Origin: a virus
Taxonomy: Duplodnaviria; Caudoviricetes
Virus record (IMG/VR): IMGVR_UViG_3300011624_000001
Span: 1 to 64,000 of that record
DNA length: 64,000 nucleotides
Reading direction: 5' to 3' (one strand)
The notes under the pieces are model-generated. The model did no database searches. It had not been told where the DNA came from and saw only the letters and a list, made by a program, of their open reading frames with translations. A program made the translations under genes and the position numbers. Below are positions 1-12,260 of this stretch, piece after piece. Within the stretch, counting starts at the first letter, position 1; each line of letters begins with the position of its first letter.

Positions 1-120
1 GGGCTGTACGCGCAGGGCACCGCCGCCATGGAGGCGAACCGCGCCAAGGTGATCGAGCGCAAGCGCCGCACCCTGGAGGCGGAAACCGTGGACGTGCGCG
101 AGGTAAAGCGTGGCGGCTAA
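1..120 (+). CDS. 3' end of upstream gene, probably terminase small subunit (partial)
   Basis: Frame 1 open (GLYAQGTAAMEANRAKVIERKRR...GG*), stop overlaps terL start; identity by position only. Confidence 0.45.
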   Translation, partial: GLYAQGTAAMEANRAKVIERKRRTLEAETVDVREVKRGG

Positions 121-1666
121 GTCCACCAAGACCCTGCTGGACGATCCGCGCTACCCGGAATTCGTCAAGCGCTATGCGTTCGACCTGCCCCGGTTCGCTA
201 TCGAGGTGTGCCGGGTGATCCCGACGCACCAGCAATGGGAAATGTTCGAGAGCGTGCAAGACCCTGGCTCGCGCACCTCGATTTCGTCCGGCCACGGCAC
301 CGGCAAGACAGCGGGCTACGGCATCATCGGCTTTTGGCACCTGCTCTGCTACAAAAACAGCAACACGATCCTGTCCGCGCCGAAGCTGACGACCGTTTCG
401 GACGGCGTGTGGAAAGAGTTCTCCGACCTGATGGGCAAGATCAAGGCCGGGCCGCACGCCTGGATCGCCGAATACTTCGAGGTGCAGGCCGAGCGCGTGT
501 TCGTCAAGGGCTTCAAGCTGGCGTGGTGGATCGTTGCTAAGACCGCGCCGCGCGGCTCGCCTGAGAATCTGGCGGGTGCCCACCGCGACTGGCTGCTGTT
601 CCTGGTCGATGAGGCCTCGGGCGTGCCTGATGCGAACTTCGGCGTCATTACCGGCGCGCTGACCGACAAGCGCAATCGCATGTGCATCGCGTCGCAGCCG
701 ACCCGCTCGTCCGGGTTCTTCTACGACACGCACCACACGCTCAGCATTGCCGAGGGCGGCGCGTGGAACAACCTTGTGTTCAGCTCGGCCGACTCGCCCA
801 TCGTGTCCGCCGAGTTCATCGCCGAGAAGAAAAAGCAGTACACGCCCGAGGAATTCGACATCAAGGTGCTGGGCCGGTTCTCCGAACAGTCCAGCAAGTA
901 CCTGCTCGGCCCGAAGGCCATCCAGGCGTGCGTGGGCGTGGTCGCTGTGCGCCCCGACGAGGCATTCGGCTGGCTGATCCCGGTGGACGTGGGCGGCGGC
1001 GGCTATCGCGACAAGAGCGTGGTGCTGGCGCTGCGCGTGACGGGCGAGGGCGAATACGGCGAGAACGCGCGCCGCGCCCAGCTCGTCAAGGTGCCGGTGT
1101 GCGCGAACGATCAGGACGTGTCGGACCTGCCGGGGATCATCGTGAACGAGGCAGGCCAGCTCAATGGCGCGATGGCGCTGGTGGACGCGGGCGGCATCGG
1201 CCTGGGCGTGTGCAAGCAGCTCGAAAAGGCCGACTTCCACAACTTCCGCAAGGTCAACTGGGGCTCGCCGAACTTCCGCAAGGAATACAAGGACCGCTAC
1301 ACGAACCAGCGCGCCCAGGCCATTTGCGGCCTATCGCGCGCCGTGCAGGAGGGCCGCTTCGGCATTGATGAGGGCATCGACCCGGCCATCGTCAAGCAGA
1401 TCGTGCGCGAGGGCTCGCGCATCCCGTACCACTACGACGAGAAGGCGCGCCGCTACATCGCCAAGAAAGAGGATATGAAGAAAGACGGCATCCCATCGCC
1501 CGACGTGTGGGATTCGCTGTCGTTCACCTTCCTTGAGGACGCCTACTACAACGAATCCGGCGAAGAAGCCGCAAACGACGGCAGCGCCAAGGACGTGGCG
1601 CGCGCCAAGCTGATGGCGTCGATGGGTCTGAACCCCGACGGCACCCCTATGGAGAAAGCAGCATGA
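110..1666 (+). CDS. terL: Terminase large subunit (P1 PacB-like)
   Basis: Walker A SSGHGTGKT, Walker B FLVDEASG, nuclease motifs PVDVGGGG..DKSV and SPDVWD. Confidence 0.92.
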   Translation: MAAKSTKTLLDDPRYPEFVKRYAFDLPRFAIEVCRVIPTHQQWEMFESVQDPGSRTSISSGHGTGKTAGYGIIGFWHLLCYKNSNTILSAPKLTTVSDGVWKEFSDLMGKIKAGPHAWIAEYFEVQAERVFVKGFKLAWWIVAKTAPRGSPENLAGAHRDWLLFLVDEASGVPDANFGVITGALTDKRNRMCIASQPTRSSGFFYDTHHTLSIAEGGAWNNLVFSSADSPIVSAEFIAEKKKQYTPEEFDIKVLGRFSEQSSKYLLGPKAIQACVGVVAVRPDEAFGWLIPVDVGGGGYRDKSVVLALRVTGEGEYGENARRAQLVKVPVCANDQDVSDLPGIIVNEAGQLNGAMALVDAGGIGLGVCKQLEKADFHNFRKVNWGSPNFRKEYKDRYTNQRAQAICGLSRAVQEGRFGIDEGIDPAIVKQIVREGSRIPYHYDEKARRYIAKKEDMKKDGIPSPDVWDSLSFTFLEDAYYNESGEEAANDGSAKDVARAKLMASMGLNPDGTPMEKAA

Positions 1667-2010
1667 CCAGCACGCCTACCCCGGACCTCGAACGGTTCGC
1701 CGAATACTTCCGGCCGGGCTTCCTGCCCTGGTTGGCGCAGAACGAGCCGATCTACGCCCAGTTCGAGCAGCAGACCCTATCGCTGATCGACGCCGGGTGG
1801 ACGCACTTCGCCGCCCGGACCATCGTGGAGGAAATCCGCCACTACACGCGCCACCGCGAGGGTGGGGTGTGCTCGCTCAAGATCAACGACCATGCCGCGC
1901 CCGATATGGCCCGCGTGTTCGTGATCCGACACCCGCAACACGCTCACCTGTGGGAATACCGGCGCGCCGACTCGCAAGCGTTCCTGGCGGCCGTGCGGGC
2001 GGCAGCATGA
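1663..2010 (+). CDS. Conserved phage hypothetical protein
   Basis: ATGA overlap with terL; KIND..P..ARVF motif resembles a common phage family. Confidence 0.75.
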   Translation: MTSTPTPDLERFAEYFRPGFLPWLAQNEPIYAQFEQQTLSLIDAGWTHFAARTIVEEIRHYTRHREGGVCSLKINDHAAPDMARVFVIRHPQHAHLWEYRRADSQAFLAAVRAAA

Positions 2011-2318
2011 GCGAAGTAATCATCATCGGCGGCGCGCGGGTGGGCCGGACCGCCATGATGGCCGCCGCGCTGCTGGCCCTGCGCGCGCAAGGCGTCGCCG
2101 TGGTCCTGGCCGAACGTATGCCGCCACCACCGCCTGACCCGTTCGAGCTGGGCGCGGCCCTGCTGGATGCCGCCCTGGTGCGCAAAGTGCCTCAGTTCGC
2201 CCGACCGCTGCCCATCCCGGCCGCCCTGGTGGCGAACTTGCCAAAACGGGCAAGTTGGCAGGTTACGGCCCGCAGCCTGCCGCGACCGCGTGAGCAGCGC
2301 ACCCGCCGCGACAAGTAG
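2007..2318 (+). CDS. Hypothetical protein (103 aa)
   Basis: ATGA overlap at 2007-2010; start MSEVIIIGG within the 1797..2318 ORF. Confidence 0.55.
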   Translation: MSEVIIIGGARVGRTAMMAAALLALRAQGVAVVLAERMPPPPPDPFELGAALLDAALVRKVPQFARPLPIPAALVANLPKRASWQVTARSLPRPREQRTRRDK

Positions 2319-2420
2319 TGCCGAAATCGAACGCATGCGGACACCCGCTGCGCGCCATGCGCAAAACCCAGCCTAGCGGGTTTCGGACAGCTCAATATTT
2401 CCGTACAGTGATTTAGGACA
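2318..2420 (+). repeat. Left res-like array of TGTCCG-type half-sites (inverted homologue of 7802..7903)
   Basis: 26-bp site GTGCCGAAA-N8-ATGCGGACA, 32-bp site TGCGCAAAA-N14-TTTCGGACA, then TTCCGTACA and TTTAGGACA. Confidence 0.7.
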
Positions 2421-2424
2421 AGAT

Positions 2425-2661
2425 ATGCACGAAAAAGTGAGTTTGCCGGTGCTGGTGATGAGCCAGTCGGACGTTGCCTACTTCGAGCGGGCCGGGGTCG
2501 ATCTGTCCGGGTATGACGTGCGCCAGCCCGAGCGCATCCCAGTGCCGCCGCCAGTGCGTCGCGTCGCCACCGGCCAGCCGCAAGGGCCGACGCGCCAGCG
2601 CACCGGCCGCGAACTGCGCCGGGCGGCCGCCAAAAGATCGGCGCGATTAGAGGCTCTGTAA
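2425..2661 (+). CDS. Hypothetical protein (78 aa, basic C-terminus)
   Basis: ORF starts 4 nt after the left array; ends before terminator. Confidence 0.55.
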   Translation: MHEKVSLPVLVMSQSDVAYFERAGVDLSGYDVRQPERIPVPPPVRRVATGQPQGPTRQRTGRELRRAAAKRSARLEAL

Positions 2662-2703
2662 GGCGTTCGAGCCGTCGGACGGCCCGAGACATCGGACGGA
2701 CGT

Positions 2704-2727
2704 AAAAAAGCCCGCTGGGCGCGGGCT
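2704..2727 (-). terminator. Intrinsic terminator
   Basis: AAAAAAGCCCGC-TGGGC-GCGGGCT; U-tract on - strand. Confidence 0.75.
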
Positions 2728-2852
2728 GGCGTGGCTTGCGGGCTATTGGACGCGCCGCATGATTCCTCGGCTACAGGCATGGCATCCGTCGCCGTCCGGC
2801 TGGGTAGTGGATTCTGTTCTGCAATAGGTGCAGCGAACAAGTGGACGGTAGC

Positions 2853-3203
2853 TCATCCTGCAACCACCTCAGCGCGCTCGGCCATCACGGCATCGACCAC
2901 TTGGCGGCATTGTTCCGGTTTCGCGGCGCGCGCCCGGCGCAGTTGGAAGGCGAGCGCCCAGCCTGCCTCGGTCAGATCGCACCAGTAGGATACGCTGCGC
3001 GCGAACGTGCCCAGCAGCTTGCCGGGGATGCGGCCGTAGGTGAGCATGCCAGCCGCGACCAGTTCCTTGAGGGCGTCATGGTCGGCCGTGTTCATGCGGA
3101 TACCTTCCAGCAGGCCGCCGTAATCGACGGCACAGGTTTCCGCGTACATGAGGATGCTGCGCTGCTCGCGCGTGATGGTGTCGAGGGTGATAGTGGTGGT
3201 CAT
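2853..3203 (-). CDS. Hypothetical phage protein
   Basis: Start MTTTITLDT with GGAG RBS; operon context. Confidence 0.7.
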   Translation of the reverse strand: MTTTITLDTITREQRSILMYAETCAVDYGGLLEGIRMNTADHDALKELVAAGMLTYGRIPGKLLGTFARSVSYWCDLTEAGWALAFQLRRARAAKPEQCRQVVDAVMAERAEVVAG

Positions 3204-3219
3204 GGCTTCTCCGTAGTGA

Positions 3220-3480
3220 TTATTCTGGTAGCAACAGCGTGTAGACGCGCTTGCTGGACATCGTGCCCGCGTCATCGCGGATCAGGCGGGAGTCGATCAG
3301 CATGCGCAGGCTGTCGCGCACGGTGCTCTCGCTCAGCAGCGTGTCCTGGCAGAGCTTGCTGACGGTCGGCCAGCAGCGGCCGTCGTCGTCGGCAAGGTTC
3401 GCCAGCGCCACAAGGACGAACTTCGCGGGCGCGCTCGGGCCGGTGGCCTTCATCGCCCAGGTCAGCGCGTGGATACTCAT
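3220..3480 (-). CDS. Stand-alone winged HTH (replication-initiator N-terminus-like)
   Basis: MSIHALTWAM..AKFVLVALANLADDDGRCWPTVSKLCQDT.LSESTVR..LR.L. Confidence 0.7.
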   Translation of the reverse strand: MSIHALTWAMKATGPSAPAKFVLVALANLADDDGRCWPTVSKLCQDTLLSESTVRDSLRMLIDSRLIRDDAGTMSSKRVYTLLLPE

Positions 3481-3482
3481 GC

Positions 3483-3740
3483 CTACGCCCCTTCCGGGAT
3501 CAGGGCCGTTACGCCTTCGGCCGTGGTGATCTTCATGTACATGCCGCCGCACTCGGTACAGGTCGCGAGCGTCGTCCAGCGGCCGCCAGTGTTGTTCTCA
3601 CGGCTCTCCTGCGTCGCGCCGCAGCATGGCACGACGTAAGACAGCAGCTTGATTCCGTCCGCGCGCAGCTTGGCGTTGTATTCCTCGGCCTTGCGCTTCA
3701 GTTCGGCCAGTTGCGTGCCGGGGCTTATGGTGGTGGTCAT
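3483..3740 (-). CDS. Hypothetical Cys-containing protein
   Basis: PCC...CTEC; tight operon spacing. Confidence 0.7.
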   Translation of the reverse strand: MTTTISPGTQLAELKRKAEEYNAKLRADGIKLLSYVVPCCGATQESRENNTGGRWTTLATCTECGGMYMKITTAEGVTALIPEGA

Positions 3741-3771
3741 AGTTGTCCTTTCAGGTGGTGAGTGGTGCGCG

Positions 3772-3999
3772 TCAGGCCGGGATGCCGTTGCGCGGAGTGA
3801 GGTCCGAGGCCAGCGCCACGGCGGCCATTATGCGCTCGACCAGGGCGGCGCTCGCAACCGGATCGACCGGCACCCGCAGCACGCGGCCGTTCTTGTAGCG
3901 GTGCAGGCTGATGCTGTTGCCCTGGACGGTGTAGAGCTTGCCGTCGGTGTCGGTGACAGAGAACGTGTCCGGGGTGAAGCGGTTGCGGATTGCTTTCAT
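3772..3999 (-). CDS. Hypothetical protein, first gene after early promoter
   Basis: Directly downstream of promoter 4032..4061. Confidence 0.7.
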   Translation of the reverse strand: MKAIRNRFTPDTFSVTDTDGKLYTVQGNSISLHRYKNGRVLRVPVDPVASAALVERIMAAVALASDLTPRNGIPA

Positions 4000-4031
4000 G
4001 TGGTGCGAGCGCTTGTGCGATAGAGAATCAC

Positions 4032-4061
4032 AGTGTATGCGCTCATAATATGATGCGTCAA
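4032..4061 (-). promoter_or_regulatory. Early-type sigma70 promoter with spacer operator, copy 1
   Basis: TTGACG-catcata-TTATGAGCGCA-TACACT. Confidence 0.8.
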
Positions 4062-4082
4062 GCGGAATGAGCGAAGCGCAAC

Positions 4083-4106
4083 AAAAAGCCCGGTCGGTGC
4101 CGGGCT
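4083..4106 (-). terminator. Intrinsic terminator after recombinase operon
   Basis: AAAAAGCCCGG-TCGGTG-CCGGGCT. Confidence 0.75.
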
Positions 4107-4116
4107 GGTTTGGTGG

Positions 4117-4716
4117 TCACGCTGCGGCCGCTATGGGCTGCGGCCGGGCCTCGCGCGCCCGGATGATGGTCTGCCGGGAGGTGTTCAGGTCGCGCGCTAT
4201 CTCTGACACAGGCACGCCCGCATCGAGCATGCCGTACACCAGCTCCTTCTCGCTGTCGCTCAGGGCTGGCGGGCGACCGAAGCGCTTACCGCCCTTCTTG
4301 GCGCGCGCCAGCCCGGCATTGGTGCGCTCGATGAGCAAGTCCCGCTCGAACTCGGCGACGGCCGCGATCACGCCCATGGTCATCTTGCCCGCTGCGCTGG
4401 TCAGGTCCATGCCGCCCAGGGCGAGGCAATGCACGCGCACGCCGGACGCTTCCAGCTTCTCGACGGTGGCGCGCAAGTCCATCGCGTTGCGGCCCAGGCG
4501 GTCCAGCTTCGTCACGACCAGCACGTCGCCGCGCTCCAGGCGGTCCAGCAGCTTGACGAACTGGGGGCGCTCGGTGGCGGCCACCGACCCGCTGATTGTC
4601 TCGGTCAGGACGCGGCGCGGGTCCAGGGCGAAGCCTGCGGCCGCAATCTCGGCGGTCTGGTTGTCGGTGGTCTGTTCGCCGGTCGATACGCGGCAGTAGG
4701 CAAATACGCGGCTCAT
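4117..4716 (-). CDS. Serine recombinase, resolvase/invertase family
   Basis: AYCRVST catalytic Ser, [24 protein letters not shown] then C-terminal HTH; 199 aa. Confidence 0.93.
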
Positions 4717-5267
4717 CCCTTGATCGCTTTCGTGACGGTGACGGGGTTCATGTGCATGCTCATCGCGGCGATGCGGCGCAGCTCGGCGCGGCGCTCGGGC
4801 GACAGTTGCGGCTCGTCGTCCTCGTCCTCGTCGTCGGCCTTCTCGCGGGGCGGCCCGAACAGCTTGTTCGTGTGCAGGAAGGCCATCATCAGGTTTTCTA
4901 CTTCCTTGGCAAAAGCCGCCTTCATCAGCGCGAACAGGAATTCGACCTCGACGTGCTCGGCCGGTGCCAGCTCAACGAAGTAGCGCGAGCGGGTTTTCGG
5001 GATGCGCTTGATGTAGAACTCGCGCTGCTGCGTCACCTTGCGAATGATCTGATCCATCAGCATTTTCTCATTCTCGCCGCTGAACGAAACTTCGACCCAC
5101 TTGCGCGCGGGCTTCTCGTCTTCGATGTCGGCCAGGGTGAGATTGTGCCGCGCCAGGATGGATTCGAGCATTGCCTGGGCGGTCGCTTGCTCGCCATCGA
5201 CGCCGCGCTCGGCCAGCGCTTTGATCTTGCCGATGCGGCGCATCAGCGCTTCGCTAACCACGCTCAT
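4713..5267 (-). CDS. DUF2786-like phage protein
   Basis: [14 protein letters not shown]...A.A.L..IL N-terminus; ATGA overlaps both ends. Confidence 0.65.
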
Positions 5268-5662
5268 CGCGCCTCTCCCTTGTCGTCGCCTTCGCGAACC
5301 CACTCCACGCAAACTGGGATGGTGATGCGTTCTTTCTGACCTGGGCGTGCGCCATGGCGCAGATCGACCCGCCCGAGGACGGTCGCCAGTTTGATTTCGC
5401 CTACGGTATAGCGCGGGACGTATCCTGGTGCTGGTGGTTCTGGCTTGTAGAAGCTGGTGCGTAGCAGCAGCGGCCGCAGGGCTTCTGTCAGCAATTGCTG
5501 CGTGAACATCAGCGTGCCATCGTGCGCCTGCTGCCGTATGATTCGGTACTGCGGCTGCACGGTCGGATCGTAGGCAATGAAGGGCTCGCAGCCGTCCTTG
5601 AAGCTGACGCCGATTTTCTCCATCACGCTATCCAGCGTCAGTCGTTGTTTTCGGAAATTCAT
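5264..5662 (-). CDS. Hypothetical protein
   Basis: Coupled stop/start overlaps. Confidence 0.7.
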   Translation of the reverse strand: MNFRKQRLTLDSVMEKIGVSFKDGCEPFIAYDPTVQPQYRIIRQQAHDGTLMFTQQLLTEALRPLLLRTSFYKPEPPAPGYVPRYTVGEIKLATVLGRVDLRHGARPGQKERITIPVCVEWVREGDDKGEAR

Positions 5663-6402
5663 GCCTCGCCTCCCTGGTCGCCGTCGGGCTGGGCGGCGCG
5701 GACTGGCAGAATTCCGCTATGGTCGCAGCGCGCGCACAGTTCCTTGCTGCTGATCCGGCCGGTGCCGTCGCAATCCGGGCATTCGCGCATCGCCGCCTGC
5801 GCGCCGAGCGTCTTGGCATCGGCATTCCAGGCGTCCATCAGCTCGCGGCCGGTTCGGGCCGACTCGGGCGAGAAGTCTGCGGCGGTCAGTGGAGTGCGGA
5901 TCATATCCGCGACGCTCCTTTGTTCGGCCAGCCAATTCACCGCGCCGTGCGCCACCGTGCAGCGGTCGCCCCGCGCGCCCTGCATCACATAGCCGATCAC
6001 GCCATAGCCGCGCTGCTCCAGCTCGCCGCGCTTGCGCTCGGTGTTTGCCATCAGGCCCGCGCGCTGGCGTTCCTCCAAGGGCGCGGCCGGTGCGGCGGTC
6101 GTCATCGCATCGAACAGCAGACCGCAGGCCGATGCCGATAGCAGGACAGGCTTGCCGGTTTCGTGCGAGCTGGCGAACAGGCGGGCGAGGTCGCTCAGGT
6201 CCAGATCGGCCCCGGCGACGGCTGGCGCAGCGCGCGTGAAGCGCACCGCGGCCTCTGCATCGGCCAGCTCGTCTACCGGCGCACCGGCCGTCGCCATCGC
6301 GTCGAATACCATGATGGCGGCGTTGCGGCCGACGGGCTGGCCGTTGTCGCCCAGGACGGCCGCGCCTGCGGTGATCTGGTCGTTCGTGAGGGTGGTGCTC
6401 AT
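5659..6402 (-). CDS. Hypothetical protein with C-terminal CxxCxGxG-type Zn finger
   Basis: Start MSTTLTND at ATGA overlap; CPDCDGTG...CARCDHSG; internal duplicated FDAM.TA motif. Confidence 0.7.
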   Translation of the reverse strand: MSTTLTNDQITAGAAVLGDNGQPVGRNAAIMVFDAMATAGAPVDELADAEAAVRFTRAAPAVAGADLDLSDLARLFASSHETGKPVLLSASACGLLFDAMTTAAPAAPLEERQRAGLMANTERKRGELEQRGYGVIGYVMQGARGDRCTVAHGAVNWLAEQRSVADMIRTPLTAADFSPESARTGRELMDAWNADAKTLGAQAAMRECPDCDGTGRISSKELCARCDHSGILPVRAAQPDGDQGGEA

Positions 6403-6884
6403 GCTGGTCCTTTCCAGTCGATTAGCGGCTGGTCGCCGCGCACATACAGAGGGTGGCGCGGTGCGCCGGTTTTCTTCGTCGTGCCGAGACACTTCAAGCG
6501 AATGCCGCTGGCCTTCAACATGGCCGCCACCTCGCGCACGCGGGACGGCTCGGCATCGCCACCCCAGGCGCAAACGACTTCCTCGGCGGCCAGGGCAAAG
6601 CGCGCCAGCCAGTTGTCGTTCTCCGGGCCGACTGGATCAGCGTGGTCCCACAGCGCGTCAGGATCGGTTGAGCGCAGCGCGTACAGGTTGACGACTTGGA
6701 TGCCGCCGCATCCCCAGGTGCGCGCGAACGAGCGGCAGCGGCCGATGGTGCGGTCGTCCAGCGTGGCGTCGGCGGTGCTCGGGTTCAGCATGATGAACAG
6801 GGCAGGGCCGCGCGTGGCGCTGGCGTCGCCGGGCCGCGACAGCATGTAGCGGTATTGGCCGCATGCGCTGATGACGGCGCTCAT
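6399..6884 (-). CDS. DUF1643 family protein
   Basis: SAVISACGQYRYML, FIMLNPSTAD...DD.T, VVNLYA, VVCAWG, PRHPLY. Confidence 0.88.
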   Translation of the reverse strand: MSAVISACGQYRYMLSRPGDASATRGPALFIMLNPSTADATLDDRTIGRCRSFARTWGCGGIQVVNLYALRSTDPDALWDHADPVGPENDNWLARFALAAEEVVCAWGGDAEPSRVREVAAMLKASGIRLKCLGTTKKTGAPRHPLYVRGDQPLIDWKGPA

Positions 6885-7282
6885 GCTGGCGCTCCGGTGG
6901 TCGGCAGGCCCGCTGCCTTGTCAATAGCGGTATCCCATTCCTCGGCGGTTGGCTCGCGCGAGTGTCCGACGGCGGCGGGCAGGGCCAGCGCCATCGCGTC
7001 AATGAACTTCTGGTCCTGCGCCACCATGGCATCGCGCCACGCGACATAGCGCGCGGCGTTGCGGCCCACTCCGGTTTTGTCGGGGTCGGTCCGGGCGATA
7101 TAGGAGGCCGCAGCCTTGAGCCTTTCGACAAGCGGCTGGGGCGCGCCCGAGCTGCCCAAGTAGGCCGCGATGTGCGACAGGTCGCGCTGGGCGTCCTGGG
7201 CGGTGTCGGGCTGGCATGCCGGGCAAGGGCAAGGTTGCTCCGGGCGCGTCGCGCCGTAGCAGTTGGCGATGGGCTTGGTCAT
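6881..7282 (-). CDS. Hypothetical protein
   Basis: ATGA overlaps in operon. Confidence 0.65.
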   Translation of the reverse strand: MTKPIANCYGATRPEQPCPCPACQPDTAQDAQRDLSHIAAYLGSSGAPQPLVERLKAAASYIARTDPDKTGVGRNAARYVAWRDAMVAQDQKFIDAMALALPAAVGHSREPTAEEWDTAIDKAAGLPTTGAPA

Positions 7283-7794
7283 ACTGGTTCTCCGGTAGGG
7301 GTAGCGGCTTCGGCGGGCATGAAGATTTCATGCACGCGCGGGTGTTCGAGGAAAGTGGATTTGACGACGACGCGCAGCCCCTTCCCCATCGTGCCGAACA
7401 GGCCGTAGGATTTCCAATCGCAGGGCTTGCCGTTCTCGCGGGCGGTTCCAGAGTTGCACTCGTAAGGGTCTGTCGAGATTCCGGCGCAGGCGGGGCATGT
7501 GTACTTGCGCGACGGGTAGGCCGCGATGAACGCCTCGGGCGTGTCGAACACAGTCACGTCGCCCAGCTTCGGGAAATTGGCGTCCTGATAGTAGTTCATC
7601 GCAGCGTAGGTGCGCTTCGCTTCGATGGCGGCCAGCACTTCGTCATGGGTCAGGCCCAGGACGGCGGCGTATTCCGGCAAAACGCGGTCGAGCAGGGCTT
7701 GCACGCGGGCGGCACGGCGCTGGCCTTCCTCGCCCGACCAGCTCGCCACGCACTCGGCGGCAATCTTGGTGATGATTTCTACGGTAGTTGGCAT
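7279..7794 (-). CDS. Conserved phage hypothetical protein (Cys motifs)
   Basis: CPAC..C..CDWKSYGLF; starts just after the right res-like array. Confidence 0.75.
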   Translation of the reverse strand: MPTTVEIITKIAAECVASWSGEEGQRRAARVQALLDRVLPEYAAVLGLTHDEVLAAIEAKRTYAAMNYYQDANFPKLGDVTVFDTPEAFIAAYPSRKYTCPACAGISTDPYECNSGTARENGKPCDWKSYGLFGTMGKGLRVVVKSTFLEHPRVHEIFMPAEAATPTGEPV

Positions 7795-7801
7795 TTTTGC
7801 G

Positions 7802-7903
7802 TGTCCGAAATGGGTGTGCGAATTATAGAGGGTGTCCGAAATAAAGCAAGCTAGGTTTTGGTCACGCTTGCGGAGTGTGTCCGCAAGCGGTCGATTACGG
7901 TGC
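7802..7903 (-). repeat. Right res-like array containing a sigma70 promoter
   Basis: Reverse complement aligns to 2318..2420; -35 TTGCTT (7844-7849) and -10 TATAAT (7822-7827) on - strand. Confidence 0.7.
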
Positions 7904-8161
7904 GGGCTTGATCTTGCGGCGAGCCTTCTCCAGCGCTTGCTCGAACGTGTCGCCGCGCGCCAGGGTCACGTCGTATGCCTTGCCGTACAGGCCCGCGCCT
8001 GGGCGCTGCCACACATAGCCGACCTCCCAAAAGCCCGCGCCGGGCGGGTTCGACACGGTGGCGCGCACATGATGGCGGCCCATCTGGCGCGCTATGACGG
8101 AGGTCACGGCGGCGGCCTGCTCGCGCTGCTCGGGCGTGCCGTGGACGTAGGAGGTATTCAT
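7895..8161 (-). CDS. Hypothetical protein
   Basis: Start MNTSYVHG at ATGA overlap. Confidence 0.65.
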   Translation of the reverse strand: MNTSYVHGTPEQREQAAAVTSVIARQMGRHHVRATVSNPPGAGFWEVGYVWQRPGAGLYGKAYDVTLARGDTFEQALEKARRKIKPAP

Positions 8162-8499
8162 GGCATCCACTCCCCGGCGTCGTTGCGCAGCGGCAGATCG
8201 CGGCCGCGCTCCATCGAGTCGGTATCGGCCTGGGTCCAGCGGCCGCTGTCGAAGTCCTCGCGGCCGTCCACGTCCGGCCACTCGTAGCGCGCGCCATCGT
8301 AGAACCATTCCGCGCCGATGGCATCGGGCGAGCAGGTATCGCGCTCGCCGCTCACCGGCACAAGATGGACGCAGCCAACGTCTTCCGGCTCGGGCGTCTC
8401 CAGCTCGGCCACGACGCGGGCGACGCCGCGCACGGTCACAGTGTCGCCGACGCTGATAGGCTCGCCGTCGTCGGCGCGGATCAGCTCGAAGCGGCTCAT
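8158..8499 (-). CDS. Hypothetical acidic protein
   Basis: Start MSRFELIR at ATGA overlap. Confidence 0.65.
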   Translation of the reverse strand: MSRFELIRADDGEPISVGDTVTVRGVARVVAELETPEPEDVGCVHLVPVSGERDTCSPDAIGAEWFYDGARYEWPDVDGREDFDSGRWTQADTDSMERGRDLPLRNDAGEWMP

Positions 8500-9008
8500 G
8501 CTGCGCTCCCGGCTTTGGCGGCGGCCTGGGCAGCGTCGCGGGCGGCCTTGATGTTGGCATGGCACTCGTCAATGACGCGCTTCGATTCCGAGCGCAGGAA
8601 TGCGGCGTCGTGGTAGCACGGCAGCTCGCCAGTCGCGAGCGAGTCGATGCACGCCAGCGCGGCGGCATACTCACGATTGCGCAGGTTCGACTGGGAGAGG
8701 GCGCGGCCCAGGTGGTCATAGTCGGCGCGGCTCTTGGCGAGGGCGGCGCGGCACTCGGCCAGCTCGACCAGGGCGCTGTAGTTGGTGCCCTTCTCGCCGT
8801 AGGGCAGGCATTCGCAGCCGTCCGGGTGCAGGCGCACCACGTCGGCCAGGACTTTCGACACGCCATCGGTGCCGGTATTGGTGTCCTTGCCGCCGACGCT
8901 GCCCATGACGCGCGCCGAAGCGATGGTATTGCGGGCGGCTTCTTCGCTCACGGCTTCGTGTACAAGCCAGTTGGTGCCGTCTACGTTCAGGATTTCTTTT
9001 TTCAGCAT
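8496..9008 (-). CDS. Hypothetical protein
   Basis: AAGGAG RBS before MLKKEIL. Confidence 0.65.
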   Translation of the reverse strand: MLKKEILNVDGTNWLVHEAVSEEAARNTIASARVMGSVGGKDTNTGTDGVSKVLADVVRLHPDGCECLPYGEKGTNYSALVELAECRAALAKSRADYDHLGRALSQSNLRNREYAAALACIDSLATGELPCYHDAAFLRSESKRVIDECHANIKAARDAAQAAAKAGSAA

Positions 9009-9025
9009 GGTCATGCTCCTTTGGG

Positions 9026-9226
9026 TCAGTCGTCGGAATTGCGTTCGAGGGCGGCCACGTCGGCAGCGTCGCGGCAGATGGCGGCGGCGGCCATGCCGCG
9101 CGCTTCGGCCCACTTGAACAGTTGAGCCCAGGCCGAGCGTGCGACGCGGCGGGCATGGCCTGGGTGGCACGAATTCACGCGGTCGATGTAGCGTTGCTGG
9201 GCTTGGATCAGGGTCATCAAGGTCAT
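9026..9226 (-). CDS. Hypothetical protein, first gene after early promoter
   Basis: Downstream of promoter 9267..9296 with GGAG RBS. Confidence 0.7.
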   Translation of the reverse strand: MTLMTLIQAQQRYIDRVNSCHPGHARRVARSAWAQLFKWAEARGMAAAAICRDAADVAALERNSDD

Positions 9227-9266
9227 TCTCCGGTCATGCCGCGCACAGTGCGCCGCCTTGAAACAG

Positions 9267-9296
9267 ATTATATGCGCTCATAATTCGGAGCGTCAA
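9267..9296 (-). promoter_or_regulatory. Early-type promoter/operator, copy 2
   Basis: TTGACG-ctccgaa-TTATGAGCGCA-TATAAT. Confidence 0.82.
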
Positions 9297-9307
9297 GCGG
9301 AATGTGG

Positions 9308-9329
9308 AAAAGCCCGCTCGCGGCGGGCT
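9308..9329 (-). terminator. Intrinsic terminator
   Basis: AAAAGCCCGC-TCGCG-GCGGGCT. Confidence 0.65.
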
Positions 9330-9371
9330 GGGGTGATTCGAGGGAGTAGAGCGGCTAGAGGGTGGCGCTGG

Positions 9372-9698
9372 TCAAGCTGCGGGCTCGCCTGAGCTGGCCG
9401 GTTCGGCGACTTGGCGCACCAGCGCGCGCCATGCGCTGTGCTGGCCGAGCAGCTTGTGTTTGTCCTCGGCGGCCGCGTTGGGCAGCTCGGCGTCGAGCTT
9501 GCTCATGCTGCCCAGCGCATAGCCGTACAGCAGGGCGCAGTCTTCGCGGGTCGCCTCGATCATGACGGCCCCGGCTTTGTCCTCGCGCCCGGCCGCGACT
9601 TCGGCTTCGATCCGCTTGAGGATGCCGCCCTCGGCGGCCAATGCCTCGGCCAGCATGGCGGCTACTTTCTTGGAGATTTTCAGGTTGGTGGTGCTCAT
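9372..9698 (-). CDS. Hypothetical protein
   Basis: ORF with RBS, operon context. Confidence 0.7.
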   Translation of the reverse strand: MSTTNLKISKKVAAMLAEALAAEGGILKRIEAEVAAGREDKAGAVMIEATREDCALLYGYALGSMSKLDAELPNAAAEDKHKLLGQHSAWRALVRQVAEPASSGEPAA

Positions 9699-9704
9699 AC
9701 GCTC

Positions 9705-10034
9705 CTATTCAGGGTTGGGGTTGGTGGGGGAAAAGGTGATGACCTCCTGGGCGATGTTCAACGGCAGTTTCGGCGTGTGCATGACGACGTTGCCACCGTA
9801 GGCAATGATGGCGCGGCCGCGCACGATGGTCCCGGCCCCGATGGCGAACGGCGCATCGTCGGGTGCCGGGCTTTCATCGAACAGCAGCATATCGCCGTCG
9901 TTCACGCGCAGGATTTCGAGGTATTCCGCGCCGATGAGCGCCTGGAAGTGCTCGATGGTCCCGTCCGACTCGACGGCGCGCACGGTGCGCGCTACCGGGT
10001 CGATCAGGATGACGTGCTGAATACGGGTGTTCAT
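9705..10034 (-). CDS. DUF3846-like protein
   Basis: ILIDP...V.......HFQALIG..YLE......DMLLFDE pattern. Confidence 0.65.
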   Translation of the reverse strand: MNTRIQHVILIDPVARTVRAVESDGTIEHFQALIGAEYLEILRVNDGDMLLFDESPAPDDAPFAIGAGTIVRGRAIIAYGGNVVMHTPKLPLNIAQEVITFSPTNPNPE

Positions 10035-10567
10035 GGGTTCGGCGCGTCGGCACCGAGCGCATTCGCCCTGGCGCTGCGCTGGCTGGCGACCAGCTCGCAG
10101 GCGGCGGTGATGCTGTCGATGGCGGCGCGGTGCTCGGCCAGCTCGTCGCGCGTGTGGTCATGGTCGGTCGCAACGCTTTGCAGCACGACGCCCAGGCGCG
10201 CGAGGTTGCCCGCGATCTTGGCGGCGGCCGCCGTCTTCGAGTCGTGCGCGTTGATGGCCTCCAGCGTGATGCCGCCGCCGTAGGGCAGCTTGCCGAAAGC
10301 CTGATTGACCAGTTCATGCGGCTGGGGCGTGTCGGCCGAGGCGGGCGGTGCGGTGTACAGCGTCCGGGCGGCGGTGACGGCCTCGGACAGCAGGCTCAGG
10401 CGTGCGTCCGCTTGCAGGGCCGTGTCGGCGGGCGATTCCACGATGCTGATGATGCGCGCCAGGGCGCAGGACACATCGCCATACAGCGGCAGCGCGGCCA
10501 GCGCCAGCAGCTCGTCCGCGCGGTGGATCGCGGCGTCTTGGACTTCCAGTGGGGTCATTGCGTTCAT
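10031..10567 (-). CDS. Hypothetical helical protein
   Basis: Coupled with both neighbours. Confidence 0.7.
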   Translation of the reverse strand: MNAMTPLEVQDAAIHRADELLALAALPLYGDVSCALARIISIVESPADTALQADARLSLLSEAVTAARTLYTAPPASADTPQPHELVNQAFGKLPYGGGITLEAINAHDSKTAAAAKIAGNLARLGVVLQSVATDHDHTRDELAEHRAAIDSITAACELVASQRSARANALGADAPNP

Positions 10568-10804
10568 TCAAGTCTCCGGTTCGATGGGGTCGTCGCTGAC
10601 GATCCAGATGGTTTTGCCCTTGTAGCGTTTCAGCTCGGGCAGGTTCGCGCGGTAGCACAGGTCTTGGTAGGCGCTGCGGGTCAGGAAGATGATGACGGAG
10701 CCCTTCGCATTGGCCTCGATCACGGCCTGGTTGGCGATGGCCGTCCCGTTGAAGTCGGCGGCGGCGAATGCGGCGGCGACCATGGTGGCGATATTAGCTT
10801 TCAT
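10568..10804 (-). CDS. Hypothetical protein
   Basis: Stop abuts next start. Confidence 0.65.
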   Translation of the reverse strand: MKANIATMVAAAFAAADFNGTAIANQAVIEANAKGSVIIFLTRSAYQDLCYRANLPELKRYKGKTIWIVSDDPIEPET

Positions 10805-10931
10805 AGTCGCCAGCGATCAGCCGCGCGGCCGTCGTGAAGATCGAGCGTTCCACGGCGCGCAGGCCGTAGCGGGCCGCCAGCTCGTCCAGGCGGGTGACGG
10901 ATTGGGTCAGGATCAGGGCGGTGATGCTCAT
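10794..10931 (-). CDS. Small hypothetical protein (45 aa, MSITALILTQ...)
   Basis: Read manually; GAGAG RBS; fills gap between promoter copy 3 and the 10804 gene. Confidence 0.5.
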   Translation of the reverse strand: MSITALILTQSVTRLDELAARYGLRAVERSIFTTAARLIAGDYES

Positions 10932-11035
10932 GCGGCTCTCTCGTTATGGTTCGGGTGTATGCGCGCAACAACTGTACGGTGTTACGCGCCGGGGCGTCGT
11001 CCTCTATCGCTTCCTGGCACGGCAAGCGATACGGA

Positions 11036-11065
11036 ATTGTATGCGCTCATAACATCGAGCGTCAA
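11036..11065 (-). promoter_or_regulatory. Early-type promoter/operator, copy 3
   Basis: TTGACG-ctcgatg-TTATGAGCGCA-TACAAT. Confidence 0.82.
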
Positions 11066-11093
11066 CAGGAAAACGACCAGCGCCACGCCGGGT

Positions 11094-11136
11094 TAGGAAA
11101 ACGCCGCCCAGGTCGTCCGGCACCGGCTCGTAAAGT
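11094..11136 (+). promoter_or_regulatory. Late-type promoter motif, copy 1
   Basis: TAGGAAAA-N29-TAAAGT(G). Confidence 0.65.
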
Positions 11137-11291
11137 GGCCTCACCAACGGCGGAACTCTGTTGCTACCGAGCGCAAAGCCGGGCTGATTGCTGGCCCGGT
11201 AGGAAGGCGGATTTGCGCGCCCTGGCTGATTATCTAACTCGACAATATGATTTCTAATGTCGAGTAAAAAGCCTTTAGAATCAAAGACTTA

Positions 11292-11319
11292 CGTTCGCAT
11301 AATCTATCTTATGTTAAAT
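11292..11319 (+). other. dif: XerCD dif-like recombination site
   Basis: CGTTCGCATAA-TCTATC-TTATGTTAAAT; XerD arm 11/11 and XerC arm 9/11 versus E. coli dif. Confidence 0.88.
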
Positions 11320-11340
11320 CGTAAAACGGAGAATTTAACA

Positions 11341-11490
11341 ATGTCGAAGCAAAGCACCCTCATCCCTTCGCGCTCGTTCCACGTCGGCGATTACAAGCTG
11401 GCCGAATGGCTCCTTCTGGTGTCGCTGATCGGCGCGTCGTGCGTGGTCGCCGCCAGCGGCGTCAAATGGCTGCTCTCCCTGGTCCCATAA
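11341..11490 (+). CDS. Small membrane protein (49 aa)
   Basis: GGAG RBS; hydrophobic WLLLVSLIGASCVVAASGVKWLLSLV. Confidence 0.55.
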   Translation: MSKQSTLIPSRSFHVGDYKLAEWLLLVSLIGASCVVAASGVKWLLSLVP

Positions 11491-11512
11491 CCCCTCATCA
11501 AAGGTATTGAAA

Positions 11513-11800
11513 ATGATTCGTCACCGTAGCCGCATGATGTTCCTGGCCGCCGCGCTGATGTGCGCCGTGAGCGCCAGCAGCGTAGCAACCGCAACCGACG
11601 TGGCCTACACGCCCGGCTCGAAAGCCCAGGCCGTCCACTCGGTTCCCGCCATGCCGGTATCGGTCGCGGATCACCACGTCGCCCTGGTGGCCGCATCGCC
11701 CAGCTTGGCGGTGGTGGCGGTGGCCGTCGGCTCGATGATCGCAGGCCCGGTGAACCCGGTGCCGCACCGGCCGCGTGAGAAGCCGCGATTGTGGGGATGA
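11513..11800 (+). CDS. Putative exported/membrane protein
   Basis: Basic N-terminus plus FLAAALMCAVSASSVA signal-like segment; second hydrophobic stretch; followed by terminator. Confidence 0.55.
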   Translation: MIRHRSRMMFLAAALMCAVSASSVATATDVAYTPGSKAQAVHSVPAMPVSVADHHVALVAASPSLAVVAVAVGSMIAGPVNPVPHRPREKPRLWG

Positions 11801-11824
11801 CCAACTGCGTACCACTGCCAAAGT

Positions 11825-11853
11825 AAAAAGCCCCGATCCGTTCGGGGCTTTTT
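11825..11853. terminator. Bidirectional intrinsic terminator
   Basis: AAAAAGCCCCGA-TCCGT-TCGGGGCTTTTT between convergent genes. Confidence 0.85.
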
Positions 11854-11858
11854 CGTTG

Positions 11859-12260
11859 TCAGAACAGGGATAGCTGCGGCGCGTTCACCGGCTCGGCCTT
11901 GGGACGCGGACCGAATAGCGCTGGCGCTCGCGCAGCGGCCGCAGGCGGCGTTTTCTCGGCGGCCGCGCTGGCGCTGTACTGCTCATGCTGGCGCAGCAGC
12001 TTGGCGGCCTTCTCCGCGATCCAGGCGTCCTTGGGCAAGTGCATCCCGGTCGTGCCGTCCCAGTCGAAAAACTCGCGGTCGTAGAACAGCACCCGGCCGG
12101 TGAAGTCGCGTTGCAGCGCCACCAGCTCGTCCGACCAGCGCTGCCATGTGTCGTCGCTGACAATCGGGCTGTCGAGCTGGTAGTACAGGTAGGAATGCAC
12201 CGCGATCTGCTGGCGGCGCTGCCGGATACGCTCGGCGGTGGTCTGTGCCGTCGCCATCAT
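11859..12260 (-). CDS. Stand-alone NAD-dependent DNA ligase domain Ia-like protein
   Basis: IAVHSYLYYQLDSPIVSDDTWQRWSDELVALQ matches LigA Ia pattern; no KxDG adenylation domain. Confidence 0.75.
   Translation of the reverse strand: MMATAQTTAERIRQRRQQIAVHSYLYYQLDSPIVSDDTWQRWSDELVALQRDFTGRVLFYDREFFDWDGTTGMHLPKDAWIAEKAAKLLRQHEQYSASAAAEKTPPAAAARAPALFGPRPKAEPVNAPQLSLF

Follow-up and report, generated by a model that had tools for sequence, protein, structure and literature searches.

Two mirror-image arrays of half-sites, each ∼105 bp long, lie inverted and 5.4 kb apart around a small serine recombinase gene near the start of the phage DNA analyzed here. This DNA (the window) is the first 64 kb of an 88,435-bp virus record, IMGVR_UViG_3300011624_000001 of IMG/VR (G+C content, 63.8%), and belongs to a temperate tailed phage. 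Both arrays are probably res-type arrays of the recombinase encoded at 4117 to 4716; the right array would be an autoregulated promoter coupled with a res site, the left array would be a retained second copy, and the block between them does not appear to be an inversion switch. Positions are those of the window unless given as genome positions, and the features are collected in Table 1.

The arrays and the recombinase

Alignment of the left array (2318 to 2424, plus strand) with the reverse complement of 7794 to 7903 gave a mean column identity of 76%. The local alignment score between the two was 49, compared with 14.2 ± 2.1 (maximum, 27) in 500 shuffles, and the left array had no better nonself match than the right array anywhere in the 88,435-bp genome, both strands included. 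A profile generated from eight arrays identified exactly two copies in the genome. Each array contained four TTTCGGACA-like half-sites in the same order and at near-equal spacing, all pointing to the downstream ATG.

Each array would start with site I, a 26-bp crossover site, and continue with accessory half-sites that lie over the promoter region. Site I consists of two inverted half-sites around a 2-bp center (12+2+12), but the palindrome is weak, with only 6 or 7 of 12 arm positions symmetric. The accessory half-sites, a 32-bp inverted pair (site II) and two direct half-sites, are found within ∼100 bp of site I and are kept in related phages and in distant homologues. The predicted recombinase promoter is overlapped by the site, which lies directly upstream of the recombinase gene in homologues and upstream of an operon ending in the recombinase in this phage. 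The inward-facing ATG codons (2425 on the plus strand and 7794 on the minus strand) follow 4 to 8 nucleotides (nt) past each array, and the stop codons of the flanking open reading frames (ORFs) touch or lie within site I (TAG at 2316 to 2318 and TAA at 7895 to 7897). Much of this was described in an initial annotation of the DNA. The homology it reported between 2318 to 2420 and the minus strand of 7802 to 7903 is borne out by alignment, shuffles, and genome-wide search alike; its count of 21 identical positions out of 26 between the two copies of site I was reproduced; and the arrays do adjoin the stop codons of flanking genes and point inward to an ATG, with TTGCTT-16-TATAAT inside the right one. 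The imperfect palindromes it described exist as 12+2+12 sites, although their symmetry is weak.

The half-site word alone was not enriched across the genome (52 matches compared with 43 ± 6 expected), and only two clusters stood out. A 25-bp palindrome of two good half-sites is present outside the window (genome positions 84229 to 84253), inside a 428-amino-acid (aa) ORF that follows a lambda-P-like gene. With its 12+1+12 geometry, its location inside an ORF, and an occurrence within chance expectation, it was not counted as a third site.

The recombinase is 199 aa long, which fits small serine recombinases, and carries a catalytic domain (PF00239, Resolvase; E value, 1e-37) and a C-terminal helix-turn-helix (HTH) domain (PF02796, HTH_7; E value, 1e-7). 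The catalytic serine (RVST) and the KLDRLGR motif align with those of Gin and gamma-delta resolvase, and judged by these domains and motifs the gene product is intact. The protein is about equally near to Gin (E value, 6e-29) and to the gamma-delta/Tn3 resolvases (gamma-delta E value, 3e-25) and more distant from Sin (3e-13); Gin was the best match in the structural database.

Recombinases sharing 61 to 69% identity with that of the window were identified in unrelated virus contigs, some of high G+C content and some of 35%, with one full-length array <130 nt upstream of the recombinase ATG. These arrays run from a 12+2+12 (or 13+2+13) palindrome through a short spacer, an inverted half-site, the −35 sequence, a half-site in the promoter spacer, a −10 sequence overlapped by a half-site, and one more half-site to the ribosome-binding site and ATG. 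The array profile matched the upstream regions of homologues over their full length, with E values down to 1.7e-8. At the homologous position, the palindromes of the homologues are near perfect (10/12 to 12/12), and they place the axis of symmetry in the weaker sites of the window between the two inner CG dinucleotides.

Recombinases of 60 to 80% identity were found in >1,800 plasmids of PLSDB, and arrays were examined in two enterobacterial plasmids. The region upstream of the homologue in the IncR Klebsiella plasmid pQDE2-D (WP_008502231.1) matched the profile from end to end (nhmmer E value, 4e-16), with TATAAT at the same position. BLASTN searches with the right array identified the intergenic region directly before the recombinase gene of Citrobacter plasmids (72.5% identity over 99 nt), the homologue in pS40-1 being WP_012695450.1. 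Half-sites of the GATACA type go with the recognition helix SR(S/A)AIQR, and all those of the GGACA type go with SRQTI(I/L/M)R. Given the same array directly before homologous recombinases and this covariation of helix and half-site, both arrays in the window are very probably the recombinase's own res-type sites. A gamma-delta res primer (PMC4049104) ends in the same word as the half-site, which agrees, if only indirectly, with the resemblance to gamma-delta half-sites noted in the initial annotation.

The possibility that the IncR-plasmid homologue is the backbone gene resD (PMC7707992) was considered and rejected, as the identity of the two genes could not be established and ResD of F-type plasmids is a tyrosine recombinase.

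Conservation in related phages and alternative explanations

Four phages with a large terminase subunit (TerL) 85 to 90% identical to that of the window were compared (IMG/VR contigs L001/L007, L002/L003, L004, and L005), giving five distinct genomes with the window. Both arrays, in the inverted arrangement, were found in all four relatives, the left type following terL and the right type on the other strand. With the exception of the left L002 array, the arrays stand as islands (61 to 88% identity) amid mostly unrelated flanks. For the left array, identity to the window was 61 to 80% in three of the four relatives, whereas its flanks reached 35 to 63% (background mean, 48%). The genes behind it vary, with a 78-aa ORF in the window and L004, an 88-aa ORF in L005, and genes for Hcp, a 71-aa ORF, and Tae4 in L001; thus, the left array marks a cargo slot.

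The L001 genes (L001:5013-6417 of IMGVR_UViG_3300046455_000467; the same in L007) encode Hcp (PF05638; E value, 2e-39), the 71-aa ORF, and a Tae4 amidase effector (PF14113; E value, 9e-10). This type VI secretion cassette looks like lysogenic-conversion cargo on a phage-plasmid.

It is unlikely that the left array is a decaying, functionless leftover of a duplication or of res-mediated cassette acquisition and that only the right array works. Such a relic could account for the lower scores of the left array on the half-site matrix, its missing −35 sequence, and the degenerate outer half of its site I, as well as for its far greater divergence in L001 and L002, where the profile E values were 6e-11 and 2e-3 compared with ∼1e-22 for right arrays. 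However, the left array has been kept at the same place in all five genomes although both flanks were replaced, and conservation is higher in its half-sites than in its spacers. The most divergent left array, that of L002, is 18% identical and unalignable in global alignment, yet the profile detects it (E value, 0.0019); it keeps the same architecture in a different sequence, with half-sites like those of L002's own right array. It also carries a canonical TTGACA, whereas the left arrays of the window, L004, and L005 have no −35 sequence and a weak −10 sequence.

The center of site I in the left arrays is AA in the window, L004, L005, and L002/L003 and AG in L001, while that in the right arrays is AC in all five genomes. 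Left and right overhangs therefore mismatch in either alignment in every genome, and Hin/Gin-type invertible segments require identical centers. Mismatched overlaps yield only trace recombinants (PMC11607074), and at most such traces would be expected from a crossover of left with right. The window, the four relatives, and an independent Logan assembly of the same phage were all collinear, in one orientation, where Hin/Gin-type segments occur in two, and features of the left and right array types never swapped sides. Look-ups of the exact 78-aa and 171-aa products returned this phage alone, arranged identically, and none of the contigs had a different junction.

With their different centers, the two arrays could instead form a heterospecific res pair acting as a natural device for cassette exchange between coresident phage-plasmids or plasmids, although we consider this a rather remote prospect. 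Crossovers of left with left and right with right would swap the 5.5-kb accessory/early block and never invert or delete it, and the array copy nearest the terminase genes would also cyclize terminally redundant DNA, as lox does in P1. The conservation of the arrays at mosaic junctions, the variable content between and beside them, and the Hcp-Tae4 genes behind one left array would fit such exchange; a point against it is that resolvases with accessory sites are expected to be topologically selective.

Inversion of 2330 to 7890 by the recombinase through the two copies of site I, swapping the arm read from the terminase side, is very unlikely. Two complete inverted sites do surround an intact recombinase gene, 26 bp is the length of hix and gix sites, and there are precedents in the staphylococcal Bin/Sin-type invertible segments and in the beta recombinase with its six sites. 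Against it stand the mismatched centers, the single orientation, and the fixed sides of the left-type and right-type features. The accessory-site architecture is moreover typical of resolvases, in which accessory sites select directly repeated partners, and the block contains neither alternative tail fiber genes nor a mirrored gene pair. Since the centers differ, the 5.5-kb block does not appear to be a working inversion switch. The initial annotation had offered a 5.6-kb invertible block as one of two models, with the caveat that the centers differ (AA and AC); the caveat turned out to be a conserved feature, and the model finds no support in it, in the accessory sites (unlike bare hix-type sites), or in the comparison of orientation in relatives that the annotation itself had proposed, which gave no flipped form.

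That the arrays are operators of another regulator encoded in the operon, or a shared promoter architecture with the recombinase as a passenger, is highly improbable: several operon genes have no assigned function and binding by the recombinase is a prediction, but plasmids and other viruses have the array directly before the recombinase gene and no other operon genes, the half-site covaries with the recognition helix, and it resembles the gamma-delta res half-site, with which the ending of the primer cited above agrees.

Gene layout and genome context

The gene layout was taken from an ORF scan and from the gene calls attached to the independent assembly. On the plus strand, terS, terL, a 115-aa ORF, and a 103-aa ORF are followed by the left array and the 78-aa ORF. 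On the minus strand, a good hairpin with a T-run directly after the recombinase stop codon, and a next unit with its own promoter-like site and terminator, indicate that the right array heads an operon ending in the recombinase. No function could be assigned from Pfam, PHROGs, or NCBIfam to the 78-aa cargo gene or to the majority of the operon genes.

Table 1. Positions of the arrays, the recombinase gene, and neighboring features in the window
Feature	Position	Strand	Remarks
103-aa ORF, last gene of the terS-terL unit	2007..2318	+	Stop codon abuts left site I; not conserved in relatives
Left array, res-type	2318..2420	+	Site I 2318-2343 (12+2+12, center AA); 14-nt spacer; site II 2358-2389 (inverted half-sites, 32 bp); half-site 3′ ends 2343, 2389, 2407, 2420
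Left array, weak −10-like AATATT	2394-2399	+	No −35
Left array, direct half-sites	2399-2407, 2412-2420	+	
78-aa ORF, cargo slot	2425..2661	+	Directly 3′ of left array; other genes at this place in relatives
Intrinsic-terminator-like hairpin and T-run	2709..2727	-	End of minus-strand unit 3999..2853
Separate four-gene unit	2853..3999	-	75 aa; 85 aa, Mu gp6-like; 86 aa, HTH_36/O-like N terminus; 116 aa; own promoter-like site 4061-4032
Intrinsic-terminator-like hairpin and T-run	4087..4106	-	10 nt past recombinase stop codon; end of right-array operon
Small serine recombinase, 199 aa	4117..4716	-	Last gene of operon; Resolvase and HTH_7
Six overlapping ORFs upstream of recombinase	4713..7794	-	Same operon; 171, 133, 161 (DUF1643), 247, 132, and 184 aa in operon order from 7794
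Right array, direct half-sites	7823-7815, 7810-7802	-	
Right array, −35 TTGCTT and −10 TATAAT	7849-7844, 7827-7822	-	16-nt spacing
Right array, res-type	7802..7903	-	Site I 7903-7878 (center AC); 13-nt spacer; site II 7864-7833; half-site 3′ ends 7878, 7833, 7815, 7802
88-aa ORF	7895..8161	-	Stop codon within outer half of right site I

Downstream of the recombinase terminator, the region 3220 to 3740 (minus strand) encodes the Mu gp6-like 85-aa protein and the 86-aa protein. Matches to the latter were confined to the N-terminal HTH found in initiators of the lambda O type (HTH_36; phrog_1032), so that it resembles an origin-binding domain that is truncated or stands alone.

The record ends share a 121-nt repeat (window 1 to 124 and genome 88315 to 88435), and this overlap implies a circular (or circularly permuted) assembly with a unit of ∼88.3 kb, though the record is classed as linear. 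The independent Logan assembly, from SRR1749284, contains the same phage as one contig, SRR1749284_357, of 88,341 bp. The completeness of the record was estimated at ∼97%. The terS gene lies at the record end and terL at 110 to 1666, and TerL is 34% identical to PacB of P1 (E value, 3e-77). A CI-type HTH/S24 repressor, a lambda-P-like loader, and a ParB-type HTH protein are also encoded in the genome. At this completeness, no tyrosine recombinase (PF00589), no second serine recombinase (PF00239), and no AAA_31-type ParA were found in it, and a megablast search of window positions 1 to 12000 against a collection of named phages gave no match. The distance from the terminase genes (pacAB or terL) to the recombination site downstream is 1.6 kb for lox-cre of P1 (end of pacB, 93206; lox, 94784/1) and 0.65 kb for the left array here (end of terL, 1666; start of site I, 2318).

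Two more distant terminases were identified in bacterial genome sequences. The nearest match in the bacterial genome collection was from a Noviherbaspirillum metagenome-assembled genome (CBHCMF010000029.1; L040), with a TerL of 71% identity and neither the arrays nor the recombinase. This match hints at a Burkholderiales host, and the missing module suggests that the res module is a clade-specific acquisition. In Formosimonas limnophila (NZ_BMZG01000011.1; L041:11509-13155, the same as L008), a TerL of 48% identity is followed ∼1.1 kb downstream of terL by the gene for a small serine recombinase 35% identical to that of the window, with hix-like palindromes of the TTCTCAAAAAC type upstream. 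The terminase-adjacent position may be a recurrent home for site-specific recombinases.

Proposed roles and known systems

The right array would represent the ancestral unit, a σ70-type promoter with half-sites over its spacer, −10/+1 region, and leader, and would drive the seven-gene operon that ends in the recombinase and a terminator. By analogy with TnpR and res of Tn3 and gamma-delta, the recombinase is expected to repress its own operon. The lack of any other site-specific recombinase among those searched for, together with the position after PacAB-type terminase genes, points to multimer resolution of a plasmid prophage and possibly to cyclization. The module would thus take the place that lox-cre has beside pacAB of P1; the right array would probably resolve dimers of the circular plasmid prophage and could perhaps cyclize terminally redundant DNA.

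The left array would be a second, inverted copy at the end of the terminase unit, before the variable cargo slot, and most likely either places the slot under recombinase control or acts as a second, independent res. Three possibilities can be listed for it: a promoter or roadblock controlled by the recombinase, a res site whose only partners are sites of the same type, or the slowly decaying relic discussed above. The second model of the initial annotation, in which the recombinase represses two promoters, one of them that of its own operon, retains its support for the right array from the wrapping of −35 and −10 sequences in homologues and from the helix covariation, but it is doubtful for the left array, where no −35 sequence could be recognized.

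Several points weigh against the reading of both arrays as res-type sites of this recombinase with an autoregulated promoter on the right. In both arrays, site I has a degenerate outer (left) half. The −35 sequence of the right array matches at only 3 of 6 positions, and a consensus promoter scan reported neither array promoter, the right one included; the left array, with no −35 and a weak −10 sequence in this phage, possibly holds no promoter. Binding, repression, and resolution by the recombinase are deduced from sequence comparisons. The multimer-resolution role rests on finding no other recombinase and on synteny with P1, and the plasmid prophage state is itself putative. TerL scans of metagenome and genome contigs added only a duplicate of L004, L040, and the L008 prophage, so that the orientation test rests on five distinct genomes, and inverted molecules, if in the minority, would not show in an assembly, which gives a single orientation.

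Resolvases whose res site surrounds their own promoter are textbook systems. Among the nearest known parallels is TnpR of Tn3 and gamma-delta (Tn1000): a small serine recombinase with a C-terminal HTH and a res of ∼100 to 115 bp that comprises a crossover site I and accessory sites with TGTCCGAAA-type half-sites, placed over a promoter so that the recombinase should also repress. In contrast to that system, protein identity is only ∼35 to 40%, site I is shorter (26 versus 28 bp), the final accessory half-sites are in direct and not inverted orientation, there is no transposase, six genes separate the promoter from the recombinase, and an inverted second copy of the whole site is present. The "recombinase family protein" clade of plasmids (WP_008502231.1 and WP_012695450.1) has proteins 68 to 72% identical to that of the window and upstream arrays homologous over the full length with the same subsite order, but pQDE2-D and pS40-1 carry one array before the gene, whereas this tailed phage carries two, inverted. 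Cre-lox of P1 shares the position just downstream of pacA/pacB-type terminase genes and the expected role in multimer resolution and possibly cyclization, a functional analogy only, since Cre is a tyrosine recombinase acting on a 34-bp site that lacks accessory sites. The Hin, Gin, Cin, and Pin segments likewise have two inverted 26-bp sites near a small serine recombinase; unlike them, the window has mismatched centers, accessory sites, no second orientation seen, and no alternative tail fiber genes. The res of Sin and the six sites of the beta recombinase on Gram-positive plasmids resemble the arrays in their direct-repeat accessory half-sites, autoregulation, and inverted copies on some plasmids, although Sin is distant in sequence.

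Literature searches yielded no publication that deals with this res clade or with serine resolvases of P1-like phage-plasmids and no experimental work on the site of the plasmid clade, which is unannotated in plasmids. Three features are new: an unannotated res architecture belonging to a plasmid clade of very wide distribution, its location in a P1-like phage at the position of lox-cre, and a conserved, inverted, crossover-incompatible duplicate beside a variable cargo slot. The inversion switch, which would have been the striking outcome, is not supported. The architecture is common to the phage and at least two enterobacterial plasmids, and the recombinase clade extends over the >1,800 sequenced plasmids noted above. 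It appears that, in a P1-like phage-plasmid without Cre, the position of lox-cre has been taken by a resolvase/res unit of plasmid type. The odd point is the conserved second full res, inverted and unable to cross with the first. Should the recombinase regulate the left array, a recombination site would have gained a second use as a portable operator of cargo genes; should each site recombine with sites of its own type, the two together would be nature's equivalent of the cassette exchange used in genetic engineering.

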